IMG/VR virus record: IMGVR_UViG_3300032253_000012
Coordinates: 1 to 37,627 of that record
Strand: one strand, 5' to 3'
Length of the DNA stretch: 37,627 bases
From: a virus
Taxonomy: Duplodnaviria; Caudoviricetes
Shown: piece by piece, positions 25,162 to 37,227 of the stretch
Numbering within the stretch: the first letter of the stretch is position 1
How the letters are laid out: each line of letters begins with the position of its first letter
The notes under the pieces: generated by a model
Told to the model about the DNA's origin: nothing
The model's database searches: none
What the model saw: only the letters and a program-made list of their open reading frames with translations
Translations under genes and position numbers: made by a program

Positions 25162-25491
25162 CTAAAAAGGTATATTATCTTCTGGTGTGTTGTTTGACGC
25201 TATTTTCTCTGCGTATCCACCAACAACACAGAGTAAAAATTGTTGCCATTCTTCCGCTGATAGTGCGGCTAAGTTTGTTTTTCCTAGCCAATCTAGGTAC
25301 TCACCTCCCATATCACCACCATGTAATGCTGCTTCTATTTCATTTGTTGTTGGATCTACCATACCTTTTAATTCCTTTAATATGTTTAAGTGTTTCATTG
25401 AGCAGGCCCTTCCAGACCTACCGCTTTCTTTTGCAAGTATTGGATCATATCCAAAACTTCTTGCTTCTCTGGGGCATATAGAGCATTTCAT
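25162..25491 (-). CDS. Conserved phage protein with N-terminal Cys/His zinc-binding motif (DUF6511-like)
   Basis: CSIC...ACSMKH; GGEYLDWLGKTNLAALSAEEW; EDNIPF SSB-like tail. Confidence 0.65.
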   Translation of the reverse strand: MKCSICPREARSFGYDPILAKESGRSGRACSMKHLNILKELKGMVDPTTNEIEAALHGGDMGGEYLDWLGKTNLAALSAEEWQQFLLCVVGGYAEKIASNNTPEDNIPF

Positions 25492-26036
25492 CTGCCTATA
25501 AACTCCGTTTTAGTTTCCTTATCTCCGAATAAATACCAAGCGCAATTATCTTTGGCGTCGTGTGGGCTGTCTTTTATCCATTTAACTCTGCCTACACTTA
25601 CAATTTTTGAGCAGTATTTTAGTAATTCTGGTGTTGTTTTACAGCTGTTTCTTTTGGCCATATTTTTATGTATAGTGTGTGCCCAATCAGCGTCGAACAA
25701 TAACCATGTTGGGGCTTGGACTCTCAGGTGATTGATTAGCGGGTGTAATATTTCTCTAGTCCAGGGCGGGTTTGTGATGAAACAATCTATATTTCCAGTT
25801 AACAATGTAAGTGCATCTTTTTTCTCTATCCCATCAGCTTTAGGATCTATATCTCTAGCTCTAGCGCAGACATGGCCATGTGGCTTTAATTGTTTTATCA
25901 ACGCCCCATCGCCAGCGCAAGGCTCACAGTATCTTGTTTTTGGATTTAAATAAGGAAGTAAAGGAGTCACCGCCCTTGGATCCCAAGTGGTATACAGATC
26001 GTTCTTTCTTCTTTTGAAATCACTACGCTTGCCCAA
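25488..26036 (-). CDS. DNA N6-adenine methyltransferase (motif order I then IV)
   Basis: DLYTT, EPCAGDG SAM-binding motif, ITNPPW catalytic motif; likely TTG start at 26036 (GGAG 7 nt upstream), ORF track extends to 26069. Confidence 0.8.
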   Translation of the reverse strand: MGKRSDFKRRKNDLYTTWDPRAVTPLLPYLNPKTRYCEPCAGDGALIKQLKPHGHVCARARDIDPKADGIEKKDALTLLTGNIDCFITNPPWTREILHPLINHLRVQAPTWLLFDADWAHTIHKNMAKRNSCKTTPELLKYCSKIVSVGRVKWIKDSPHDAKDNCAWYLFGDKETKTEFIGR

Positions 26037-28590
26037 AATCATACTCCAATATATCGTCAAATTTTCCATTAGGTCTTACTAATATTCTTGTTGGTTTATC
26101 AAGCGTCTTCATAGCTTCCGCTGCTTCTTCCGCGCTTTGTGGTATGGCCGCCGCGCTACCTCCGCGTTTAATCCAGAAGCCAGCGAATCTTGTTTTCATT
26201 TTAGGGTTTTCTGGGAATACCCATTCAGGATAACTAGTTACGCCAACGTGATAGGATATCTTAATTGAATCTGGTTTACCTGTTTTCATATGAATATCAT
26301 AATAAACATCATCCACATCATACCATACCGATTCAATTTGGCTGGATAGTATGGCGGCTTTACTGCTATTGGTTTCCACGTTTGGTTCTGGTTCTGGCCA
26401 TTCATACCCGCAATCGAAGCACACGCGAACTGCCGCATGGTTTAAGCTTAGGCATTTAGGGCATTGTTTTATTGGTGCGTCTCCTGTGCCATTGCCCGGT
26501 GCTTTTACTTTTACATTATCTATGGGGCCAAGGGCTTTTACAACCCCGCCAAAATCCAATACCATACAGTTAGAAACTAACAACCCTTGGCAAGTGAAGC
26601 GATTTCTGGGTCCGGCATTGAGAATGTCCCATACCTGCCTTTTGGTTTGCTTGATTTTAGGTTGAAAAATCTGCACTCTATTTCTTGGAAAGAAAAACCC
26701 TTGTTTAATAGTTTTATTATTGTATCGTCTGCGTAACGCACGTTTGGAAATTGATCTCTGAATAAATGCATTTGTCTTGTACCAAAACTGCATCGCTGAT
26801 TGTTCATATTTATAATAGCTCGAACAAGACGAAGATTCCCCGGCTCGTAATGACCGTTGTTGTCTATTCTGTCTATTTGTAAGGACCGATCCAAACCAAG
26901 ATTGTCCATTATGTATTTGCCCATTAAGCTGGGGCTGCCAAACCTGAACTTGATTCCTCTTGCCCCATAATTTGGGTAACTTAAATCCTTCTTGTTTGTG
27001 CATCTCTGCTTCGCAGTAACACATCTCCGCTGTAGCCATTTTGGGACTCCAAGAACGGGCTTGCTGATATTTGTGATCCGTCCACATTTTCTGCACCCAG
27101 CAGTTTTTTTCCTCAGCGTATCCACAGCTTTTTCTTCCAGCCTCCCACATCCATTGCATAAGGTTTCTAAATACGGACGTGATCTCTCGCCCTTTCTTAT
27201 AACCACTCCTGTTGTAACCACTATCGAGCTTGATTTCCATCCCACCATATCCTGTAATACTGATGGGTATTTGTTTGGCGGCGCATTCTTTAAATTCTTT
27301 CCATCCATATTCTGTCCACACCTTATGATCGGGCGTTGCTATCAGCCCAGCATACTCAATTGTATTTTGGATACCTTTTGACACTATACCACCATGCCTC
27401 ACAAATGCAACACCATCCCAAACTTTCATTTGTTTTGTTATTTTTTCAATCGGTACCAACCCTATATCGGTTAGAATCTTTTGCCCTTCGGCAATACAAT
27501 CTGGTTTGGCTGATGAAGCGATCGCGGCCAGTCGTAGCTCTTTGGTCGGTAGGTTTCCGATAGAGCCATCAACCAACCTCATTCCACGGCCAACAATCTG
27601 AACATATGACGATGGGGCGCGTAGTGGGCGCATAAGAACAACGAGATCAATGCAGGGGATATCGATTCCTGTTGTCATCGTCATCACATTGACAACGCCA
27701 TCAACTTCCTTGCGCTCAAACTGGCCAAATATTATATCACGCTCTTCTTCTTTGGTGTCTCCTGTAATTAGCGCGAAGTTTAATCCACGCCTTTTAAATT
27801 CCTCCACTGTGTTTTCCGCGTGCTTAACAGTAACACAGAAAACTAGCGGGTAGTTTCTAGTTTCCATGTGGTGGATTACCTCAGTTACACAAGCCTCTGT
27901 AATTTCGCATTTGTTCACAGCTTCATCAAGTTGAGACACAACAAAATCTCCGCCACTCATACCAACACTAGAAACGTCCATTTCAATATTGGTTTTTGGT
28001 GTTATTACTGGCGTTAGGTATCCCTCCTCTAGCAAGTGCAGAACTGGTATTTCAAAAGCTATATCTGTAAATAAAGGATTCTTACCCTCAGTTAGATATC
28101 CTTGGTTCTGTCTGTAAGGTGTGGCCGTGTATCCGCATATTTTTAATTTAGGGTTGATTATCATCAGCGCAGCAATGAACTGTCTATACATTGTTGCTTG
28201 ATTGGGGGAGATTAAATGTGCCTCATCAATTAAAATTAAATCGACATGGCCAACGATAGAAGCCTTGCGATATATCGACTGTATCCCAGCAAATAATATT
28301 TTGGCGTGATGGTCTTTCCTGCCAAGGCTCGCACTATAAAATCCAAGTGGTGCATGAGGCCATTGCTTGATCAGTGTCGCGGCATTCTGTTTTAAAAGTT
28401 TAGCTACATGAGCTAATACTAATATTCTAGTTCCTGGGTATAGGGTACAAGCCCGCTTGGTAAATTCAGCGATCATTAAAGCTTTACCACTGGCTGTAGG
28501 AGCAACGATTAATGGATTACCATCGCTTATAGCCCAATAATCGAAAGGTGCGCGGATTGCCTTTTCTTGATATGGTCGGGGGGTGAACAT
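26023..28590 (-). CDS. SF2 DEAH-box helicase (RadD/YejH-like) with C-terminal zinc finger, interrupted by an intein (545 aa after splicing)
   Basis: PRPYQ, APTASGK, IDEAH, TATP, TTGIDIP, QIVGRGMR, spliced junction KPD|CMVLDFGG, CPKC...CFDCG. Confidence 0.92.
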   Translation of the reverse strand: MFTPRPYQEKAIRAPFDYWAISDGNPLIVAPTASGKALMIAEFTKRACTLYPGTRILVLAHVAKLLKQNAATLIKQWPHAPLGFYSASLGRKDHHAKILFAGIQSIYRKASIVGHVDLILIDEAHLISPNQATMYRQFIAALMIINPKLKICGYTATPYRQNQGYLTEGKNPLFTDIAFEIPVLHLLEEGYLTPVITPKTNIEMDVSSVGMSGGDFVVSQLDEAVNKCEITEACVTEVIHHMETRNYPLVFCVTVKHAENTVEEFKRRGLNFALITGDTKEEERDIIFGQFERKEVDGVVNVMTMTTGIDIPCIDLVVLMRPLRAPSSYVQIVGRGMRLVDGSIGNLPTKELRLAAIASSAKPDCIAEGQKILTDIGLVPIEKITKQMKVWDGVAFVRHGGIVSKGIQNTIEYAGLIATPDHKVWTEYGWKEFKECAAKQIPISITGYGGMEIKLDSGYNRSGYKKGREITSVFRNLMQWMWEAGRKSCGYAEEKNCWVQKMWTDHKYQQARSWSPKMATAEMCYCEAEMHKQEGFKLPKLWGKRNQVQVWQPQLNGQIHNGQSWFGSVLTNRQNRQQRSLRAGESSSCSSYYKYEQSAMQFWYKTNAFIQRSISKRALRRRYNNKTIKQGFFFPRNRVQIFQPKIKQTKRQVWDILNAGPRNRFTCQGLLVSNCMVLDFGGVVKALGPIDNVKVKAPGNGTGDAPIKQCPKCLSLNHAAVRVCFDCGYEWPEPEPNVETNSSKAAILSSQIESVWYDVDDVYYDIHMKTGKPDSIKISYHVGVTSYPEWVFPENPKMKTRFAGFWIKRGGSAAAIPQSAEEAAEAMKTLDKPTRILVRPNGKFDDILEYDFGQA
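26569..27498 (-). mobile_element. Intein (310 aa, helicase residues 365-674)
   Basis: Block A CIAEGQKILT, block B GLIATPDHKVWT (TxxH), block F VWDILNAGPRNRF, block G LLVSN followed by +1 Cys; removal restores the conserved helicase motif. Confidence 0.93.
26577..27308 (-). CDS. HNH-type (homing) endonuclease-like protein nested in the +1 frame of the intein
   Basis: DMVGWKSSSIVV...CNGCG...GCRKC zinc module, KQRCTN...YPNYGARGI, IDRIDNNGHYEPGNLR...NMNNQR beta-beta-alpha-like motif, C-terminal HTH-like segment; SD-like TAAGGTG upstream of ATG. Confidence 0.85.
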   Translation of the reverse strand: MDGKNLKNAPPNKYPSVLQDMVGWKSSSIVVTTGVVIRKGERSRPYLETLCNGCGRLEEKAVDTLRKKTAGCRKCGRITNISKPVLGVPKWLQRRCVTAKQRCTNKKDLSYPNYGARGIKFRFGSPSLMGKYIMDNLGLDRSLQIDRIDNNGHYEPGNLRLVRAIINMNNQRCSFGTRQMHLFRDQFPNVRYADDTIIKLLNKGFSFQEIECRFFNLKSSKPKGRYGTFSMPDPEIASLAKGC

Positions 28591-28592
28591 TG

Positions 28593-29264
28593 TTAATAAA
28601 ACATATCGGGTTGACGATATGCCTCCTCTATACGCTTATAGGCTATATCGAAGTATTTTTCTTCTAGCTCTATACCTATAAATTTACGCCCCATTTTGGC
28701 GCAAGCTACCCCTGTTGTGCCACTACCCATGAAGGGGTCAAGGATTATTTTGGTGTCTTTAGGCAGGTTATCAATACACCACTCCATGACCTCTACAGGC
28801 TTTTGTGTTGGGTGTTCTCTTACATCATCGCCTTTGCGTATCATACCATTCCACATGTATCTTTTTATCCTTACAGCTTTCTTTAAGCTTGTCCACGCCA
28901 TCTCAGCATCAGCAAAGTCATTAGCCCCATTCTCTTTATCCCATATTAACCAGCAAGATGTGGGCGGGAGAGGGAAATAGTTACCACCAAATATAATTTG
29001 TTCACCACTACAAGCCATCATTAAATCAAGGTGTTGCTTTCCAATAGGATATTTATCCCAATCATGCACCCCATAATCTCTTTGGTCAGCTAATGCCTTT
29101 GACTTCCCACCGCTTTTTCTCTGTCGTGACTGAGTTTTTTTACTATTTTCATTTATCCCATAAGGTGGGTCAGTCACAACAGCGTCAACCTTATTAATCC
29201 CCAGCATAACCTCCATACAGTCCCCTAAGTACAGCGTACAATCACCAATTATTTCTTTTATCAT
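28593..29264 (-). CDS. DNA N4-cytosine/N6-adenine methyltransferase (beta class)
   Basis: LYLGDC, VVTDPPYG, HPTQKP, LDPFMGSGTTG, FIGIE. Confidence 0.93.
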   Translation of the reverse strand: MIKEIIGDCTLYLGDCMEVMLGINKVDAVVTDPPYGINENSKKTQSRQRKSGGKSKALADQRDYGVHDWDKYPIGKQHLDLMMACSGEQIIFGGNYFPLPPTSCWLIWDKENGANDFADAEMAWTSLKKAVRIKRYMWNGMIRKGDDVREHPTQKPVEVMEWCIDNLPKDTKIILDPFMGSGTTGVACAKMGRKFIGIELEEKYFDIAYKRIEEAYRQPDMFY

Positions 29265-30235
29265 CCCTCATCCCTCCAAACGCTTCCATCTTCCATAGTG
29301 TACTCAATCCAATTTTCTTCTGGGCTAGAATCTATAGGCTCACCAGGAACAAGTGTTGGGTTGTATCTGTGGCTTTTGCAACCTCTTTCTTGGTGGGCGT
29401 AGTCTAGCGTTGTATCATTGTTTATATCCCTTAAAATCCCGCAGCTCCATGTACCATCCCTTTCAGCAGTAACATGGGCACACGTCCTGCAATTCCTATC
29501 AGCGGCCTCACGCCCCCTACAAAGCTCTTTAAAGTCACAGAATAAACATGGTGGCATTTTATCGCTATCACTAAACTTTTCTGGTGCTTCATCAGAAAAT
29601 ATAATTCTTTCGGCTTTGGCTTTTAGTTTAATAGCCTCCGCTGGGTCTGCTTCTGTTCGGACACCTATCTGTTTCCTGCCCCCTGGTGTTGTGACTGTCA
29701 TCCATGAGCGAGTAAGCCCTTCGTAGTCCATATATAAAACCTGTTGCGCGTAATAAACGATATCCCATATTGATAAAGCTGATTTTTCATTGATCGCCTT
29801 TAGCTTCTCAAGCTTGGCAAATTTCTTGTCATTTACCGCTTTATTTTCCCATAGGTGGAGTGTCGCTGGGGCTTGAAGTAATCCCAATAATATTCCATCG
29901 GCGTGCCCTCTGAGGTGTCCTCCAAAATCTTTCCATCCAATTTGTCTAGTTGAATCGCCTGACGCTGTGGTTTGTAACTCTAGTTGAGGCACAGCCTTTA
30001 TACGCTCAGCTACTAAATCCTCTGTACGGTGTCCGTCCTCAAAATAACGTAGGGTTTGAGCTTTGAATTTAATTGTTTTCACCCAGCGGAATCCATACCA
30101 AAGCTCACGAGAGCATTCTTTACCAAGTGAAGACATTCCTAAGTACGGTCTGCGCTTTTCTTCTGTTTGCGCGGCCTCTTGTGCTTTATCCATGGCTTCG
30201 AGGGTTGGGCATTGTGTGGTGACTGGTAGTTTCAT
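29261..30235 (-). CDS. PD-(D/E)xK exonuclease, Cas4/RecB-like with Cys cluster
   Basis: YLGMSSLGKECSRELW, GHADG, WENK, YYAQ..LYM, CLFCDFKELC, CRTCAH. Confidence 0.8.
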   Translation of the reverse strand: MKLPVTTQCPTLEAMDKAQEAAQTEEKRRPYLGMSSLGKECSRELWYGFRWVKTIKFKAQTLRYFEDGHRTEDLVAERIKAVPQLELQTTASGDSTRQIGWKDFGGHLRGHADGILLGLLQAPATLHLWENKAVNDKKFAKLEKLKAINEKSALSIWDIVYYAQQVLYMDYEGLTRSWMTVTTPGGRKQIGVRTEADPAEAIKLKAKAERIIFSDEAPEKFSDSDKMPPCLFCDFKELCRGREAADRNCRTCAHVTAERDGTWSCGILRDINNDTTLDYAHQERGCKSHRYNPTLVPGEPIDSSPEENWIEYTMEDGSVWRDEG

Positions 30236-30336
30236 GTTATCCTCGTGATTAAAAAGGCGGAGCCGTCTTGTGAATGCTATTGATTATTTACACTCCAACA
30301 TTCCTTGGAACGAAGTAACGGACAAGACGGCTCCAT

Positions 30337-30368
30337 AAAAAAAGTGCCAGCATATATTACCCGCTGGC
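30337..30368 (-). terminator. Intrinsic terminator after ssb-like gene
   Basis: Minus strand GCCAGC-11 nt-GCTGGC-AC-TTTTTTT. Confidence 0.65.
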
Positions 30369-30382
30369 TAGGATCCCTCAGC

Positions 30383-30895
30383 TTACTTATGCCAAGGAGC
30401 TGCGGCCTGTGCGGAAGTCGCAGGTGGTGCAGTAGTAGTAGGTGGTGCTACATTGTTTGTTGCTGGTGGTGTAGAGGCGGCTTGTGTAACAGCTCCAGCA
30501 ACAGGGCTATAATCAGCGATGTAAATTTCACCAATACTTTTGCCTTTAGTTTTTTTCTTTACTACAGCTACCGCACGTTTTTGCAATAAGGCAGCGGAAT
30601 CATTTGTGCCGGGAACCTGTGCGGCCATACGCAAGGTATTAAATTCCTCACCAGCAATTTTAACTGCAATAGGATTGCTGTTCCAAAAGTTTAAAATAAT
30701 GGTAAAATCAGCACCTTTTTGTGGGCCATCATCCACAACACAATTGTATTGAAGATATTTATTAGCTGGATTTGATTTTGCCTCCTTTATTTCTTCAGTA
30801 AGGATAATGAAGGGATGCTCACCTTCATCTAAAGGAAATCCGCCTCCTCCCATTTTAGGTGAGTTGTCATCAAAGTTTTGTCCTAAATCTGCCAT
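30383..30895 (-). CDS. Single-stranded DNA-binding protein (DUF669-like)
   Basis: SD CAGGAG before ATG 30895; OB-fold-like body, A/P/T-rich linker and APW C-terminus; follows Sak4-like ATPase. Confidence 0.7.
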   Translation of the reverse strand: MADLGQNFDDNSPKMGGGGFPLDEGEHPFIILTEEIKEAKSNPANKYLQYNCVVDDGPQKGADFTIILNFWNSNPIAVKIAGEEFNTLRMAAQVPGTNDSAALLQKRAVAVVKKKTKGKSIGEIYIADYSPVAGAVTQAASTPPATNNVAPPTTTAPPATSAQAAAPWHK

Positions 30896-30896
30896 G

Positions 30897-31658
30897 TTAT
30901 TTAGCTCCTGTTTTTTTAGGGTTAAAGTAAGGGATATGTTTAGTAAGTTCATTCCAATCCAGCGGCATTTCCGCTGGTAAAGAATAGCGGTTTTTGGCTA
31001 CGAACGCGGGGCGTTCCTCAGTGAACATAATTCGCTCACCTGCACCAACAGCTCGAACATTTTTCTTGTCCTTGCCATCTTTAATGGTGGTAACTCTGTA
31101 GTTAGCAAACAACACGATATCACTGTGTTCTAGTAATTTACCCGCAGCCTTATCCTGAAGCTTGATTTGATAGCGGTCATACGGCTCTGTAGTGGGGTCA
31201 TTATATTTCTTGGCAATAGAGTGTGCTGTTTGAATAATTGTCATACCCTTCTCATTGCGTAGATAATTTATCGCGTCGATGTATTCTGACCAATAAGTTA
31301 AAGCTTCAACATAGCCTCTGCCATAACCAGGATCCTCAATACTTGTCCAGTTATTAACTTCACAAGTATGTTGCCATATAAGCGGCTCCATCCAATCAAG
31401 AGAATCCTCCACAAGAGTTTTGAAGTCGTGTTCCTGTGTTGCTAGAACAGTTAAAGCGTCCATTACTTCTGCATAAGAATTGCACAGAGGAAAATGATCT
31501 GACTCTAATAATCCTAGACCGTCTTCTGTTAAGATAAAAATTGGATTTGGAGCATCAGCACCAAACTTGGTTTTACCAATACCTTGAACACCATGAATTA
31601 GTATTCTTGGAGGTAGATGTGATGCGCCTTTTTGAATTGATTTTAAATCGAATGCCAT
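30897..31658 (-). CDS. Sak4-like AAA ATPase / phage recombinase
   Basis: ILIHGVQGIGKT Walker A, TLVEDSLDW Walker B, GYGRGY, AKNRY. Confidence 0.8.
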   Translation of the reverse strand: MAFDLKSIQKGASHLPPRILIHGVQGIGKTKFGADAPNPIFILTEDGLGLLESDHFPLCNSYAEVMDALTVLATQEHDFKTLVEDSLDWMEPLIWQHTCEVNNWTSIEDPGYGRGYVEALTYWSEYIDAINYLRNEKGMTIIQTAHSIAKKYNDPTTEPYDRYQIKLQDKAAGKLLEHSDIVLFANYRVTTIKDGKDKKNVRAVGAGERIMFTEERPAFVAKNRYSLPAEMPLDWNELTKHIPYFNPKKTGAK

Positions 31659-32152
31659 TACACACTCCCCTCTACAAGTTTAATTGAGATTTTACGCTTG
31701 CCTGGTGTAACGCTGCGAGCTGGAGCAAATACCTTTTGAATTGCTTTTGGCCATGCATTAAAGGTAGCTTCAGGAATTGAACGCTTAACAGTTATATACT
31801 CTTCAGGATCTTCCTCCCAATCATCACGGATAACCTTCTCGCCAGCTTTCATAGCGTCAGCATCCCATTTAACATTTTTGGGGGTTTCAGCTTCTACCAC
31901 ATAACCATCTTGGCTATCGTCATTGAAGGTTGCCTTACCATAAATACTTTCCTTAGCCTTATAAGCTTCAGCCATTGGCTTAGCATAACGCTTATTAAGG
32001 ATGCTGTTATATATAGTGCCAATATCTTTAATTTTAGTGGCTTCAATAACAATCTCTTGCTGTATTAATAGCAGTTGATCTACTGTGAGAGCCTCTAAAT
32101 CTGCGGGGGTCATCGTTAGAAGATCCTCCATAGAAATTGAATTTTTCGTCAT
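31658..32152 (-). CDS. Conserved hypothetical protein of the phage recombination module
   Basis: SD AAGGA; PKNVKWD...FNAWP...FAPARSV pattern; translationally coupled to the ATPase. Confidence 0.7.
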   Translation of the reverse strand: MTKNSISMEDLLTMTPADLEALTVDQLLLIQQEIVIEATKIKDIGTIYNSILNKRYAKPMAEAYKAKESIYGKATFNDDSQDGYVVEAETPKNVKWDADAMKAGEKVIRDDWEEDPEEYITVKRSIPEATFNAWPKAIQKVFAPARSVTPGKRKISIKLVEGSV

Positions 32153-32204
32153 AGTTCTTTCCTTGTAGTTATCTATGGTAACTCATGTTGAGTACCTAAC
32201 AACA

Positions 32205-32235
32205 ACACTAAAGATATGTTGAATCTATGTCAACA
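32205..32235 (-). promoter_or_regulatory. Sigma70 promoter of recombination operon with overlapping palindromic operator
   Basis: TTGACA-17 nt-TAGTGT on minus strand; TGTTGA-N7-TCAACA palindrome at 32217-32235 covers the -35. Confidence 0.7.
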
Positions 32236-32250
32236 GTTTATTTGTATTTT

Positions 32251-32661
32251 TTATGATATCCACTCATCAAGAATAGCGAGTGCTTGATCTACAGCGTCTT
32301 GTGGGCAGTCAGCCTTAATCACACGCACATCATGGCCAAGTGAGCGCAATAGTTTATGGCGGGCTTTTTGAGTTTTAGATACTGATCCGCGTTTAGTTTT
32401 TAGTTCTATCATGCCAAGTCTGCCATCACCAAAGTATAACCTTAAATCGGCTTCCCCTGCTCTCATGCCAGACATTTTAGCTTTTATAGCTTGTTTTCTA
32501 CTTGTTCTTAAGCCATTTTGATCTGCTGCGAATGTGAATTTTGCTCCTGCAAGTTCTGCTTTATGCAGGGCTTCCGCAATAGCCATCTGCAAATGATCTT
32601 CTTTCCATGATAGACTGGGATTGCTCCATAGGTGACGATTTAGTATGGATAATTTAGGCAT
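32251..32661 (-). CDS. VRR-NUC family nuclease (Holliday-junction resolvase-like)
   Basis: E..LQ, GMRAGEADL, IELKTKRGSVSKTQK...LRSLGH. Confidence 0.8.
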   Translation of the reverse strand: MPKLSILNRHLWSNPSLSWKEDHLQMAIAEALHKAELAGAKFTFAADQNGLRTSRKQAIKAKMSGMRAGEADLRLYFGDGRLGMIELKTKRGSVSKTQKARHKLLRSLGHDVRVIKADCPQDAVDQALAILDEWIS

Positions 32662-32875
32662 TCAATAAATCCGCTGGGTTGATTTCAATTTTATGCTCTT
32701 TAGCCAGTCCAATGAATTTTTTCTGTAGGTCAGTGCTAAAAGTTCCACGCTTCATGGCGTGATGAAGGGTGGTGCGATCTATATTTATAGCCTCAGACAT
32801 TTTAGGTATTGATCCGTTGAAAGTAGGTAGAAATTTATCAACCATCTTCTCTACACGATTTTTTTCAGTAGTCAT
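32654..32875 (-). CDS. Small HTH Cro-like transcription regulator
   Basis: 73 aa; GSIPKMSEAINIDRTTLHHAMKRG HTH-like segment and INPADLL end; own promoter. Confidence 0.6.
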   Translation of the reverse strand: MTTEKNRVEKMVDKFLPTFNGSIPKMSEAINIDRTTLHHAMKRGTFSTDLQKKFIGLAKEHKIEINPADLLNA

Positions 32876-32914
32876 TATTTAATCCTAATTAAGTTGTGCC
32901 GCCGCACAATTAAT

Positions 32915-32945
32915 AGGATAGAGGATAGTTGAAGGAATGGCAACA
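32915..32945 (-). promoter_or_regulatory. Sigma70-like promoter of cro-like gene with degenerate copy of the same operator
   Basis: TTGCCA-17 nt-TATCCT on minus strand; AGTTGA-N7-GCAACA at 32927-32945. Confidence 0.55.
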
Positions 32946-32952
32946 TTAAAGT

Positions 32953-34263
32953 TTACATCACCACCAAACAATTACTTGGCCTTGTCACTGCGACATAAAG
33001 CATTTGCATCATTTCTTTAGTTCTTGGGTTTTTAAGGATATCATCCAGTATAAGAAACTGGTTTTCAAAAGTCGATCCTTGCGAGCAATGAACAGTCATT
33101 GCGTAAGGATGGCGTAGATCAGCATAATAATCTACATATGAAAAGAATAACGGCCACATTCCACCATGAGCTTTTGCTGCATCTCTGAGCGTAGATATAT
33201 TCCTTTTGTGTGTGGCGTCATCATCTACACAATAGGCTGTTTCCTCACCCTCTTCATATGAATCTAATCTCACGGCCCAGCACTCAACAGGATCAATTAA
33301 ATTTTGATTAGCGGCATAGGCTGCGGTTACTGCTGCATCCCTACCACATGGCCTATAAGGGACAGTTTCACGATACAGCTCCTTAACATTAAGCTCCTGA
33401 TTGACGTAAAAGGATTCCATCGCGTTATTCCTTAGCACAACAGTTTGATTGGGCATGAATGGTGTATCTGGATTATTATAGATATTGTTATAAGCCATTT
33501 TATTTATCATATTAACAGTTCTATTTGTCCATGCAACACAACGAAACTTATCGTTATCTTTTTCAAAATCTTTGGATTTAAAGGAATCCATCATCCATTG
33601 TAAGCCCACTTGGTATGGTGCCTCAATAATACCTGTGTGATCTTTCATATCAAAAGATTGCTTTAGACGATCCAAGTCAAAAGTTCCCGCGTCGATCATT
33701 TCTCTAAGTAGCATACTGGCCGCGATAATGGGATTTTCAGAAGCCTGACGTATTACAGTTTTAAGTTCTGTGCATTGCCCAGCATGAAAGGCTCCTGATT
33801 CTACCTCGCCAACTGGAGGTAATTGTGCTGGATCACCAATAGTTATAAATGATTTGCATAGTCTATTGAGATATTTCAAAAGTTCATCACTAACCATTGA
33901 TCCCTCATCAATAATAATAGTTCTATATTGCTTAGCGCTAGACGCTCTACCGCTCTTTAGGATTCTCTTTCCGCCACTAGAGCCAACAGTTAAACCAAGC
34001 AATTTAAAAGTTGTCATTATATCTACATCAATATTTGCATCACGCATTTTACGGCGTATTACATCTACAGCTTTATTGGTTGGAGCTGTAAGGCAGATAT
34101 TATAGTCCTTTTTTTTACAGCGTTTTACCAATTCAATTAGGCTATAAGTTTTCCCCACACCAGCATATCCCTTAATTACATAGCGTTTTTGATGCTCTAT
34201 TGCGTCCATAGCTGATGATACGGCATGTTCTTGCTCGTCGGTTAGATCTATATGATTCCTCAC
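32953..34263 (-). CDS. SF1B helicase, Dda/RecD-like
   Basis: GYAGVGKT, APTNKA, IIDEGSM, GDPAQLPPV, IRQ, YAMTVHCSQGSTF, LYVAVTR. Confidence 0.92.
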   Translation of the reverse strand: MRNHIDLTDEQEHAVSSAMDAIEHQKRYVIKGYAGVGKTYSLIELVKRCKKKDYNICLTAPTNKAVDVIRRKMRDANIDVDIMTTFKLLGLTVGSSGGKRILKSGRASSAKQYRTIIIDEGSMVSDELLKYLNRLCKSFITIGDPAQLPPVGEVESGAFHAGQCTELKTVIRQASENPIIAASMLLREMIDAGTFDLDRLKQSFDMKDHTGIIEAPYQVGLQWMMDSFKSKDFEKDNDKFRCVAWTNRTVNMINKMAYNNIYNNPDTPFMPNQTVVLRNNAMESFYVNQELNVKELYRETVPYRPCGRDAAVTAAYAANQNLIDPVECWAVRLDSYEEGEETAYCVDDDATHKRNISTLRDAAKAHGGMWPLFFSYVDYYADLRHPYAMTVHCSQGSTFENQFLILDDILKNPRTKEMMQMLYVAVTRPSNCLVVM

Positions 34264-34448
34264 GTCAAAAACTCCAAAATCATATAAATTAAAACCAAAG
34301 TGCCAAATATAGAGCTAGCTAATATATAAAAGTCTAACCATTCAAAGCCTTCGCTTTCTGGCTCTTTTATATTAAATGCTCTGGCCAAATATAGGGGGTG
34401 TGATAGGCGAGCTGGATTCATGTGGGGATAAACACACCCGCCTACCAC
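34260..34448 (-). CDS. Small hypothetical membrane protein
   Basis: C-terminal TM segment; stop overlaps helicase GTG start; true start uncertain. Confidence 0.45.
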   Translation of the reverse strand: MVGGCVYPHMNPARLSHPLYLARAFNIKEPESEGFEWLDFYILASSIFGTLVLIYMILEFLT

Positions 34449-34647
34449 TATCCTGACTAATGCAGGAATACTGTTCTAAATTCTCTTGCTCCTGTAGCTG
34501 CATTAGGTGTAATTCCCAACGAAGCTCTCGTAATCTTTTATCAAGGCAACCGCTTGGATCGCCGTAAAGATTACGCATCTCATAGATTTTTTCTGATTTC
34601 TCTAATATCTTATTAGATTTAATGTCTACAAAATCAATTATTTTCAT
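34372..34647 (-). CDS. Hypothetical protein
   Basis: 91-aa ORF on the coding strand of this arm, AGGAG upstream. Confidence 0.5.
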   Translation of the reverse strand: MKIIDFVDIKSNKILEKSEKIYEMRNLYGDPSGCLDKRLRELRWELHLMQLQEQENLEQYSCISQDSGRRVCLSPHESSSPITPPIFGQSI

Positions 34648-34690
34648 GTCCCAAAAAGCTCCTTAACGATTGCAGTTATAATAATAACAT

Positions 34691-34939
34691 TTATGTTGAA
34701 TTAGTGTCAACAGGTATTTCATAATAATAACCATCAATACCCTGCCTAGAATAAACATATTTTTTAAGCCTGCGTCTATATATCATCGGCTCTTGTTCTG
34801 GATGGGCTACGATTACATCACCATCATCATTAAGTATCATCAGCATCACCTCTTCTATGGCGCTATCCGGCCATCTTTCAGGAATTTTCAGCTCGTATTC
34901 AAAATGTCCGTAAACTTTTAGTGTTCTGTGTGCCATCAC
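34691..34939 (-). CDS. Hypothetical protein
   Basis: Coupled to primase stop, GAGGGGGAG upstream. Confidence 0.6.
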   Translation of the reverse strand: MMAHRTLKVYGHFEYELKIPERWPDSAIEEVMLMILNDDGDVIVAHPEQEPMIYRRRLKKYVYSRQGIDGYYYEIPVDTNST

Positions 34940-37227
34940 TTCTCCCCCTCTATAGCAATATAAGCCTCTCTTGGTCTACCTCTTTTACCCGAAGCTACCC
35001 GCTCATGTGTAACAAGCTCCGCAGATATAAGCGCATCCATTATATCGCCCATATCTCGTTTGCGGTGTTTCGAATATGGTGGTGTTTTTTGCATATCACT
35101 CCAACTCACGCCATGCTCACCAGTGCCTCGGATAGCCTCTAATACTTCTTTTTTATCGGCTTCAAAAGAAGATCCAGACATTTTCATTTTAAGAACATCT
35201 GCTGATTGATTAACCGCAAAGCGCACATATTTTACAGCCCAATTAATAGCCTCAATACCAACAATACTAGCCATAGGATCAATAGCTAGTTGCACAATTA
35301 TAGATATCCTCATTGCCATTTCTTTGGCACGCCCTGGTAGGGCCTCTAAACCAAAACGCTCTAATTTATTGGCAAGATCAACGCACTCTTGTGAATAGGA
35401 CCTGAGCATGGCTATAGAATCGCCATGAAAGGCCATTGTAATAAAGCTTGGCTCATTAACGGCGGTATCACTGGCTCCGAGATTATACCCTGCACGATCC
35501 TGTAGGGTTTCAATCCAATTGGTAATTTTATGTGGAACATCAATCATATCTTTATCATCGTGAACCATGCGCGGCATATTTGATTGGTGGATTATAAATC
35601 GCCCTAAGAATCCATCCGCAACGGCGTCACTGCGTAAATTAGCAAAAAAAGCAACTGGTGTTGTCATCCCCAGTAATGTTACCGCTGGGTTTTTAATGTG
35701 CCTGTCACTCATTTCTTTGGCTTTTTCTTTGGTCAGTGTCATTGTACTGTAACTGCTAGGGCGCATTGTCCCATGACAACGACCTATAGCTTCCATGAGC
35801 TGTGTGTTTGCCTCCATGAGTTGGGTGTTTTTGTTTCCTTGAGCAGCTTCCAGATATCGTCCAAACTCATCGATAATTGTAATGTGTTTGGGTGCGCGAA
35901 GTAGGGCAGAAAACACAGCTCCAGCACTAGTATATCCTGATCCGTTAATATAATCATGGAGTCCTGCTTTTGAGAGAATATCTTCGATGACGGTTTTACC
36001 GTGTTCTTTTCCTGTTCCTGATTTAGCTATATTTAAAAAATAAAGCGATGTGTGATTGCCTTTGGTTGATCTGTAATTCCTGCCCATAACAATAGAGCCA
36101 ATAGCTAATGCTGTTTGCACAGCGAATCCTGGTTGCGGAGCGCGTGCAGTAACGTTGTAATAGTTTGCTATATCCCCTAAAACTCCTGGTGGTGATAATA
36201 ATTCTGCTGGCATATCCTCATAATCTGTCTTTTTGATATATAGAGCTGGCTTCTCTTCAATGAGTTTTTTGACAGTCTCCAACCCCTCTAATGTGTGGAG
36301 GTCATTAAAGTCTACAGGCTTACTGGAGGTATCTTGAAAGATAGGAAATACAATACGGCATTGAGTAGCTTCACTGGCCGCAATTCCCTTAGATCTGCCC
36401 GTATTTACGTCCTTCCATATGTCATCATCGCCACAAATAATAACATTACTGTCTGGGTTTTGATCTTTTGCTGTGTTTGTAACATCAAGTAAATTATTGG
36501 CGTTATAGGCACAATATACTTTTGCACCTGTAGCTTCATTAATACTGGCTGCTGTGGCGAATCCTTCTGCTACATAAACAACATCACCAGTCCCCTTTAT
36601 GATGTGATAGCCACCACTAGTTTTTCCCTCAACCAAGAATTTCTTTTTCTCGCCCTTAATTTCCTGAAGGGATGCAATCGCTCCGTCTATTGTAACGGAT
36701 AGTATGAGCCATCCATTTCTAATACGTGCGCCATGTGGTTTTATTTGTTTACGCGCTAGATACTCATGGTCTTCTGGCGCTGGGTCTGCATTATCCCAAA
36801 TGGCCTGTGCTTTAATGGCCGCACGTTTATATGATTCCTCACGTTCTATTTGACGATTGATAACTGCTCTCTCAATTTGTTCATTGAATAAAGCTGTTTC
36901 TGTGGGAGACATTACGTTTTTACGCTTAGACGTCCACACAATACGCTCTTGAGATGGCTCTCTCCAATTGCCAAAAACACCAACACCAACCATGGCGCCA
37001 GGGCGGTAATCATCCTCAAACTCTGAATACCAGTACCAACCAGCTTTAGCTGATCCCTTATCGCCTGGTGTAGCAAACTTAACAACGCGGTCAATGTCTG
37101 GGGTGGCGTCTTTAATAGTGAAGCCGTAAGAGCGGAGTTCGGACATAAAGGCTGTGCGTGGGTCTTCCTCAGTGATAGTTTCTCTCTTCATTTTTCCAGA
37201 GAGATCAAAATTTGATAAATCAGTCAC
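34936..37227 (-). CDS. Bifunctional TOPRIM primase / P-loop helicase-like protein (DUF3987-like C-terminus)
   Basis: HEYLARKQI, YVAEGFATA, ICGDDD, DFNDL (TOPRIM); AKSGTGKE, IIDEFG, DGFLGRF (P-loop); GKRGRP end. Confidence 0.88.
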   Translation of the reverse strand: MTDLSNFDLSGKMKRETITEEDPRTAFMSELRSYGFTIKDATPDIDRVVKFATPGDKGSAKAGWYWYSEFEDDYRPGAMVGVGVFGNWREPSQERIVWTSKRKNVMSPTETALFNEQIERAVINRQIEREESYKRAAIKAQAIWDNADPAPEDHEYLARKQIKPHGARIRNGWLILSVTIDGAIASLQEIKGEKKKFLVEGKTSGGYHIIKGTGDVVYVAEGFATAASINEATGAKVYCAYNANNLLDVTNTAKDQNPDSNVIICGDDDIWKDVNTGRSKGIAASEATQCRIVFPIFQDTSSKPVDFNDLHTLEGLETVKKLIEEKPALYIKKTDYEDMPAELLSPPGVLGDIANYYNVTARAPQPGFAVQTALAIGSIVMGRNYRSTKGNHTSLYFLNIAKSGTGKEHGKTVIEDILSKAGLHDYINGSGYTSAGAVFSALLRAPKHITIIDEFGRYLEAAQGNKNTQLMEANTQLMEAIGRCHGTMRPSSYSTMTLTKEKAKEMSDRHIKNPAVTLLGMTTPVAFFANLRSDAVADGFLGRFIIHQSNMPRMVHDDKDMIDVPHKITNWIETLQDRAGYNLGASDTAVNEPSFITMAFHGDSIAMLRSYSQECVDLANKLERFGLEALPGRAKEMAMRISIIVQLAIDPMASIVGIEAINWAVKYVRFAVNQSADVLKMKMSGSSFEADKKEVLEAIRGTGEHGVSWSDMQKTPPYSKHRKRDMGDIMDALISAELVTHERVASGKRGRPREAYIAIEGEK

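Follow-up and report, generated by a model that had tools for sequence, protein, structure and literature searches.

The window, as we call the whole stretch of DNA analysed here (37,627 nucleotides), is a linear virus record of 37.6 kb that is 72% complete and has a GC content of 40%. Its layout is that of a tailed phage: terminase, portal, capsid and tail genes and an ORF of 2250 aa lie on the plus strand (1486-23567), and a replication module comprising a primase-helicase, a Cas4-like exonuclease, a single-stranded DNA-binding protein, two methyltransferases and a helicase lies on the minus strand (25162-37227). In each of the three public runs, short contigs whose flanks are unrelated match a 34-base segment of a methyltransferase-like gene (25576-25609; four differences in X1); the segment could be a CRISPR spacer or a chance match. 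The helicase gene is interrupted by an intein, and a second ORF is nested out of frame in the intein codons. The features are as follows.

28590-26023, minus strand: SF2 helicase gene, RadD/YejH-like, 855 aa with the intein included
27499..28590, minus strand: N-extein, helicase residues 1-364 (Pfam ResIII, DEAD and Helicase_C; PHROG 16 helicase, E 2e-78)
26569..27498, minus strand: class-1 intein of 310 aa, helicase residues 365-674 (from the translation, the empty site in L262 and profile matches)
26023..26568, minus strand: C-extein of 181 aa, the +1 Cys first (from the translation; collinear with L262)
27339..27353, minus strand: the family's commonest start position for the nested ORF, ATG at 27353, closed in the window by two stops three codons on
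27306..27326, minus strand: likely start of the nested ORF, ATG at 27308, with a weak ribosome-binding site, within the intein codons for H-K-V-W-T-E-Y; the first ATG, GTG or TTG past the last stop in the +1 frame
26577..27308, minus strand: HNH-like endonuclease ORF, 243 aa, in the +1 frame relative to helicase and intein (PHROG matches, 788 homologues, structure model)
26577..26579, minus strand: stop codon TAG of the nested ORF, made by the intein codons Leu(TTA)-Val, 8 nt before the intein end

The N-extein matches the NCBIfam RadD model at E 1e-74, which is under that model's cut-off, and the C-extein contains the last strand of the helicase core and a Cys4 ribbon. L262, a helicase of 547 aa with 86% identity over the N-extein, is missing precisely the 310 intein codons and has the Cys that follows them. 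Class-1 inteins splice through Cys1, the His of block B, the terminal Asn and the +1 Cys. The window insert has Cys1, a block B TxDH motif, the block F Asp and a Ser-Asn end followed by Cys; the penultimate residue is Ser, not His, in the window intein and in 37 of 149 elements of its family. Self-splicing of the insert appears likely; a stop in its middle would sever the helicase from its last 181 residues. A profile built on 35 N-terminal parts of the family had 22 matches in the PDB, 21 of them inteins or Hint domains, the best being the Mtu RecA intein (E 0.0014). Hint_2 was found in 13 of these 35 members, always below cut-off, and not in the window intein, which neither Pfam nor NCBIfam recognised above cut-off. 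Its single-sequence structure model has a pLDDT of 30.

The intein family, its sites and its relics

The nested ORF has 788 homologues of similar length, and their most conserved part is the tail, where intein blocks F and G are read in the +1 frame. Alignment scans of three collections covered the best 80 loci each of at least 539, at least 507 and at least 250 confirmed matches; of 255 sequences examined, 253 match the profile and 226 are distinct. Among the matches listed, 169 of the 172 loci scoring at least 160 bits have a stop-free -1 frame, that is, the frame of the intein; the other frame is open in none of them. Two of the three close relatives with intein-frame stops, L056 and L070, contain frameshifts (decay or assembly error), and the third, L073, has no match to the intein N-part. 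Weaker loci, again among the matches listed, have an open -1 frame in 5 of 54 cases, three of which are inteins too. The expectation in the first-pass annotation that homologues outside such inteins would lack an equally long open frame held: with five intein loci left out, the frame is open in only 2 of 49 weak matches, two short ones of about 60% GC, and in none of the 29 that reach at least 140 codons.

A motif search yielded both intein ends in 149 of the 174 open loci, all with Cys1...Asn and then Cys or Ser; the remaining 25, mostly cut by contig ends, were dropped. Dereplication at 80% identity left 123 representatives. Cys1, the block B TxxH, the block F Asp and the terminal Asn are present in 123 of 123, the representatives having been picked by their end motifs. 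By hand labelling, their insertion sites number 12 and lie in SF2 helicases, family-A polymerases and one DnaB-like gene. The family has hundreds of phage members and includes cultured phages. The nested members, with two extra loci, form one clade (support 0.99) separate from 51 of the 53 weaker matches. Distances in the HNH and splicing domains correlate (Spearman 0.54), and either tree requires 18 changes of site label (minimum 11; about 60 when shuffled). Two polymerases, L162 and L252, carry two or three inteins, two of them from this family at different sites.

Distribution within the family is patchy. The helicase closest to that of the window, L262, is empty, and the closest element among those listed (60% identity in the HNH, 71% in the splicing domain) sits in a helicase that is only 33% identical. 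Likewise, four relatives of an invaded Streptococcus phage polymerase, 84-90% identical to it, are all empty. Mini-inteins of the same family exist, and a decay series can be assembled (L260:2501-3004, L213:2556-3548, L007, L259 and L252:1956-2369) that includes a copy in which an in-frame deletion has spared a third of the HNH shadow, another whose HNH is interrupted by a stop, and mini-inteins. At L216:2718-3871 and L221:2700-3682, an HNH gene separates the N- and C-parts of the intein, whose frames differ, as in natural split inteins. This spread through empty, mini, deleted, stopped and split forms fits what homing would produce. Related polymerase inteins of Salmonella phage VT223 (L258, 2501-3400) and Pseudomonas phage MR14 (L261, 2501-3370) hold a related HNH in the +2 frame, which indicates that capture or frame change occurred more than once.

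Whether the element carries its own +1 Cys into new sites was considered and rejected at the window site, where L262 already has the Cys, and at the main polymerase site, where four of four empty relatives do. It may apply at one helicase site only (L037, L047, L052, L053, L066 and L188), at which the six invaded genes have the +1 Cys versus a conserved Asp in 71 of 76 other helicases.

The nested ORF and its start and stop signals

The nested ORF encodes a beta-barrel with four Cys, a beta-beta-alpha core with DR for DH and a helical C-terminal domain, its tail being overprinted on intein blocks F and G. It matches PHROG 374 (E 7e-19), PHROG 3377 (E 3e-16) and also PHROG 2081, which are HNH or restriction-endonuclease families; no match above cut-off was found in Pfam or NCBIfam. 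The structure model (pLDDT 86.9) has a weak match to PacI over residues 83-173 (Z 5.0, rmsd 3.2, 77 residues), with which two unrelated chains tie, and a Foldseek search with the model returned nothing at E 0.001. In a protein atlas, the matches are viral clusters without names, the nearest named one being I-HmuI NUMOD-like (26% of members). At the position of the general-base His, after the metal-binding Asp, the protein has Arg147, which a weak profile match (E 0.31) pairs with the DH of I-HmuI. Because of this replacement we call the ORF HNH-like and not a canonical member.

The product is a predicted nuclease, against whose activity the Arg, the lack of a Pfam match and the weak structural match all count. 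One could envision that the protein is made and selected for as something other than a homing nuclease: it might bind DNA, have a regulatory role or be an HNH without catalytic activity. That Arg is all but invariant at the catalytic position (121 of 123 nested members) and that structural matches are weak speak for such a role. However, the DR motif is shared by 48 of 53 other matches, including free-standing relatives annotated as HNH; the Asp and Asn of the motif are invariant or nearly so; and the patchy distribution, with its deleted or stopped copies (L260, L213, the mini-inteins), is as in a homing cycle. We regard this alternative as unlikely.

How the nested ORF is expressed is suggested by its signals. 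In the family's commonest arrangement, the start is an ATG formed from a Tyr codon ahead of block B, and a GAGGT formed from a Glu-Val pair lies 8 nt upstream. The Glu codon is GAG in 31 of 36 elements with the nested ATG, as against 1 of 7 elements that lack the ATG; in exteins the figure is 67 of 136. In 100 of 149 elements, 8 nt separate the end of the stop from that of the intein. The Leu codon that forms it (ending in TA, before Val) is used by 80 of the 102 elements whose HNH frame gets there and by 2 of the 13 whose HNH frame has already ended; the background is 293 of 2133 Leu-before-G codons in exteins (14%) and 53 of 200 in the intein N-part. These start and stop tallies come from 123 related sequences, which are not independent events. 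The tuning is reciprocal: silent positions in the intein motifs supply the ribosome site, the start and the stop of the nested gene, whose ORF extends through block F in 109 of 123 representatives.

These signals also bear on the possibility that the nuclease is made as a fusion, by ribosomal frameshifting from the helicase/intein frame, and not by internal initiation. The +1 frame does open inside intein block B, start positions vary across the family, and the window ribosome site is weak (-3.0 kcal/mol with a short anti-SD, -6.7 kcal/mol with a longer one). Against this, an in-frame candidate start is present in all 123 representatives, and the GAGGT and ATG are selected at silent positions in the largest group. 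In addition, the region around the start, compared over 47 elements, is less strongly folded than 77% of the other intein windows, a comparison uncontrolled for composition; no hairpin masking the nested start was found in the window. We therefore consider frameshifting improbable.

Since the start most common in the family is closed in the window and the remaining ribosome site is weak, this particular copy may be poorly expressed. A more extreme form of this idea is that the HNH ORF of this phage is a recent relic, its start lost, its protein no longer made and its open frames simply inherited. The two stops following the ATG at 27353 and the weakness of the remaining site would agree with it. 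Yet all 243 codons are open, an outcome that recoding of the intein frame produces in only 58 of 100,000 trials, every invariant residue is in place, several relatives likewise use starts downstream of block B, and most changes relative to the four nearest relatives leave the HNH protein unaltered. That the ORF is a relic strikes us as very improbable.

Selection and stop avoidance in the two frames

Selection was estimated in each frame from 29 disjoint pairs of elements, 68-97% identical and with the window in none of them, by a simple site count. In the middle of the element, omega is 0.13 (0.10-0.16) in the HNH frame and 1.15 (0.83-1.57) in the intein frame. The N-terminal, non-overlapping part serves as a control and gives the opposite picture (1.26 in the HNH frame, 0.20 in the intein frame), and in the C-terminal splicing region values are low in both frames (0.25 and 0.08, respectively). 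In the N-terminal part, variation sits at intein third positions; in the middle, it has shifted to those of the HNH codons. Counts between the window and its relatives are small and agree in direction. The middle thus combines a nuclease-like protein under selection with what is, for the intein, a neutral stop-free linker; amino-acid selection on the shadow peptide was looked for and not found (omega 1.15), stops alone being selected against. In these pairs, more than 40% of HNH silent positions differ, so a frame still free of stops calls for continuing selection and not merely a lucky founding event.

The same constraint is visible in the codons of the window ORF. The first-pass annotation had placed it at 26700..27250, where the nested gene indeed lies, although the ORF is wider (27308-26577). 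It had noted, correctly, that a T-ending HNH codon before AA, AG or GA creates a stop in the intein frame, and all eight codon strings that it quoted are found in the ORF. Its central claim, that T endings are avoided at such codons and used freely elsewhere, is borne out by the counts: none of 65 at-risk codons ends in T versus 32.75 expected (P about 7e-23; the expectation is based on 24 window genes or parts of genes, with 10,114 codons in all, 41% of them T-ending), and 58 of 131 harmless ones do (Fisher P 4e-13 against the at-risk codons). HNH codons 14-220, which are clear of the splicing motifs, give 0 of 56 versus 50 of 113 (P 6e-15) by themselves. The lack of T at at-risk positions restates the open frame, so the two count as one line of evidence and not as a second proof, independent support coming from the relatives; for the family, a table of zero T before AA, AG or GA is circular, the loci having been chosen as open, and was not counted. 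Before dinucleotides that cannot complete a stop, third positions show a general deficit of C only, and choices making Cys or Trp are not avoided.

Randomisation leads to the same conclusion. When the HNH ORF was recoded with genome codon usage, as had been suggested, the intein frame acquired a mean of 29.5 stops and stayed open in none of 100,000 trials, with no open run longer than 108 codons; when the codons of the gene itself were permuted, the mean was 16.9 stops and again 0 of 100,000 were open. The third frame is ordinary (17 stops versus 14.8 expected), and none of the 24 control genes has a -1 frame that stays open beyond 64 codons. The AT bias of the genome is only moderate; an open frame by chance is nonetheless unlikely. 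From this selection we infer that both frames are translated.

An assembly artefact (as the first-pass annotation also argued), or an RNA intron, for which the host frame could contain stops, can be dismissed as next to negligible. The three runs, two of which barely cover the stretch, list no joint across the intein. The only run covering the whole 4.5-kb stretch (without a difference) may be the window's own source, but at least 169 independent loci keep the arrangement, identical 151-nt contigs inside the ORF occur in two other studies, Rfam gives no match at E up to 1, and the protein-splicing residues are conserved in every representative.

A probable dual-coding intein and its relation to known systems

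Homing nucleases spread their own element by cutting empty alleles. In our view, the locus is very probably a dual-coding mobile intein, in which a likely self-splicing helicase insert carries a nested HNH-like gene that is likely initiated internally and would act in homing. Ribosomes in the helicase frame would read through the 310 intein codons, after which the intein would splice itself out. Other ribosomes would initiate at the internal start and make the separate HNH-like protein, which would serve as the homing nuclease and copy the element into empty helicase genes. Stops would be purged from the shadow because only ribosomes that have crossed it can make the C-terminal splicing residues and the last 181 residues of the helicase. 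As to its origin, a free-standing HNH gene probably entered a mini-intein once, out of frame and without breaking the intein; start and stop would later have been taken from the flanking splicing motifs, and the gene would have spread with the intein to new helicase and polymerase sites. It is tempting to go further and view the arrangement as a stable, co-adapted cassette and not a passing stage: one ancient capture of a DR-type HNH, with its signals and C-terminal tail housed in silent positions of the intein motifs, whose independence from the intein protein allowed a single lineage to radiate into helicases, family-A polymerases and a DnaB-like gene, at about a dozen sites altogether. We offer this second proposal tentatively, as possible. 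If true, the family would provide a large natural set for studying the spread of inteins to new sites and DNA cutting by an HNH with Arg for His.

Whatever the fate of that proposal, the class is not rare, with hundreds of phage members, and because the nuclease lies in another frame, annotation pipelines call these inteins decayed or nuclease-free. They also present a clean natural case of overlapping genes under asymmetric selection, one frame being selected for its protein and the other only for staying open. Their mini, partly deleted, split and +2-frame relatives support the model in which inteins gain mobility by capturing free-standing nucleases.

Several known systems invite comparison. 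In the article texts of open-licence PMC and bioRxiv, we found no paper on this HNH family, on its overlap with splicing blocks or on silent intein codons making a nested start or stop. The polymerase P45 of Hamiltonella phage APSE-1, with its nested P46 "HNH endonuclease" (NC_000935.1, database annotation), has an intein of the same family (44% identity over 68 residues). As in the window, the HNH relative occupies the +1 frame and the intein frame is open; the host gene and site are different, however, the HNH match is weaker (66 versus 327 bits) and the stop falls inside block F. The APSE literature that we searched mentions neither intein nor HNH. Another published hidden HNH ORF, one with zinc fingers, likewise has a stop-free shadow frame; it has no splicing domain and no detectable ribosome site, whereas the window has both. 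In the fractured genes reported by Dassa et al. (2009, PMC2677866), a free-standing endonuclease lies between the halves of split inteins. An endonuclease gene inside an intein is common to both arrangements, and L216 and L221 show the split state with related parts; the window intein, unlike those, is not split.

The passages that we draw on from a preprint by Phillips, DeSimone and Gogarten (bioRxiv 10.64898/2026.09.14.751524), in which Gorbalenya 1998 is credited for precedent, describe a cyanobacterial dnaX intein with an out-of-frame LAGLIDADG HE. According to these passages, that intein shares with the window overlapping frames, frame-dependent omega, a putative Shine-Dalgarno sequence before the nested start, mini-inteins and empty alleles. 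It differs in having a LAGLIDADG enzyme at one site in a cellular gene, where the present family has an HNH and occupies phage helicases and polymerases at about a dozen sites; the same passages report no test of stop avoidance and no start or stop made from silent intein codons. Same-strand, out-of-frame intein nucleases had already been published by Gosselin et al. (2025), likewise with an intact intein frame and a gene for a beta-beta-alpha-type nuclease in another frame of the same strand, and likewise with a proposed origin through invasion by a free-standing HEN. The inteins of that study are described as having an endonuclease VII-like HEN in frame 3, a description that the window does not fit: its nuclease is of the DR-type HNH, lies in frame +1, has hundreds of members and, in 109 of 123 representatives, runs on through block F. 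The layout of an out-of-frame nuclease within an intein is therefore already in print, and the present analysis confirms that it is real, under selection and common in phages.
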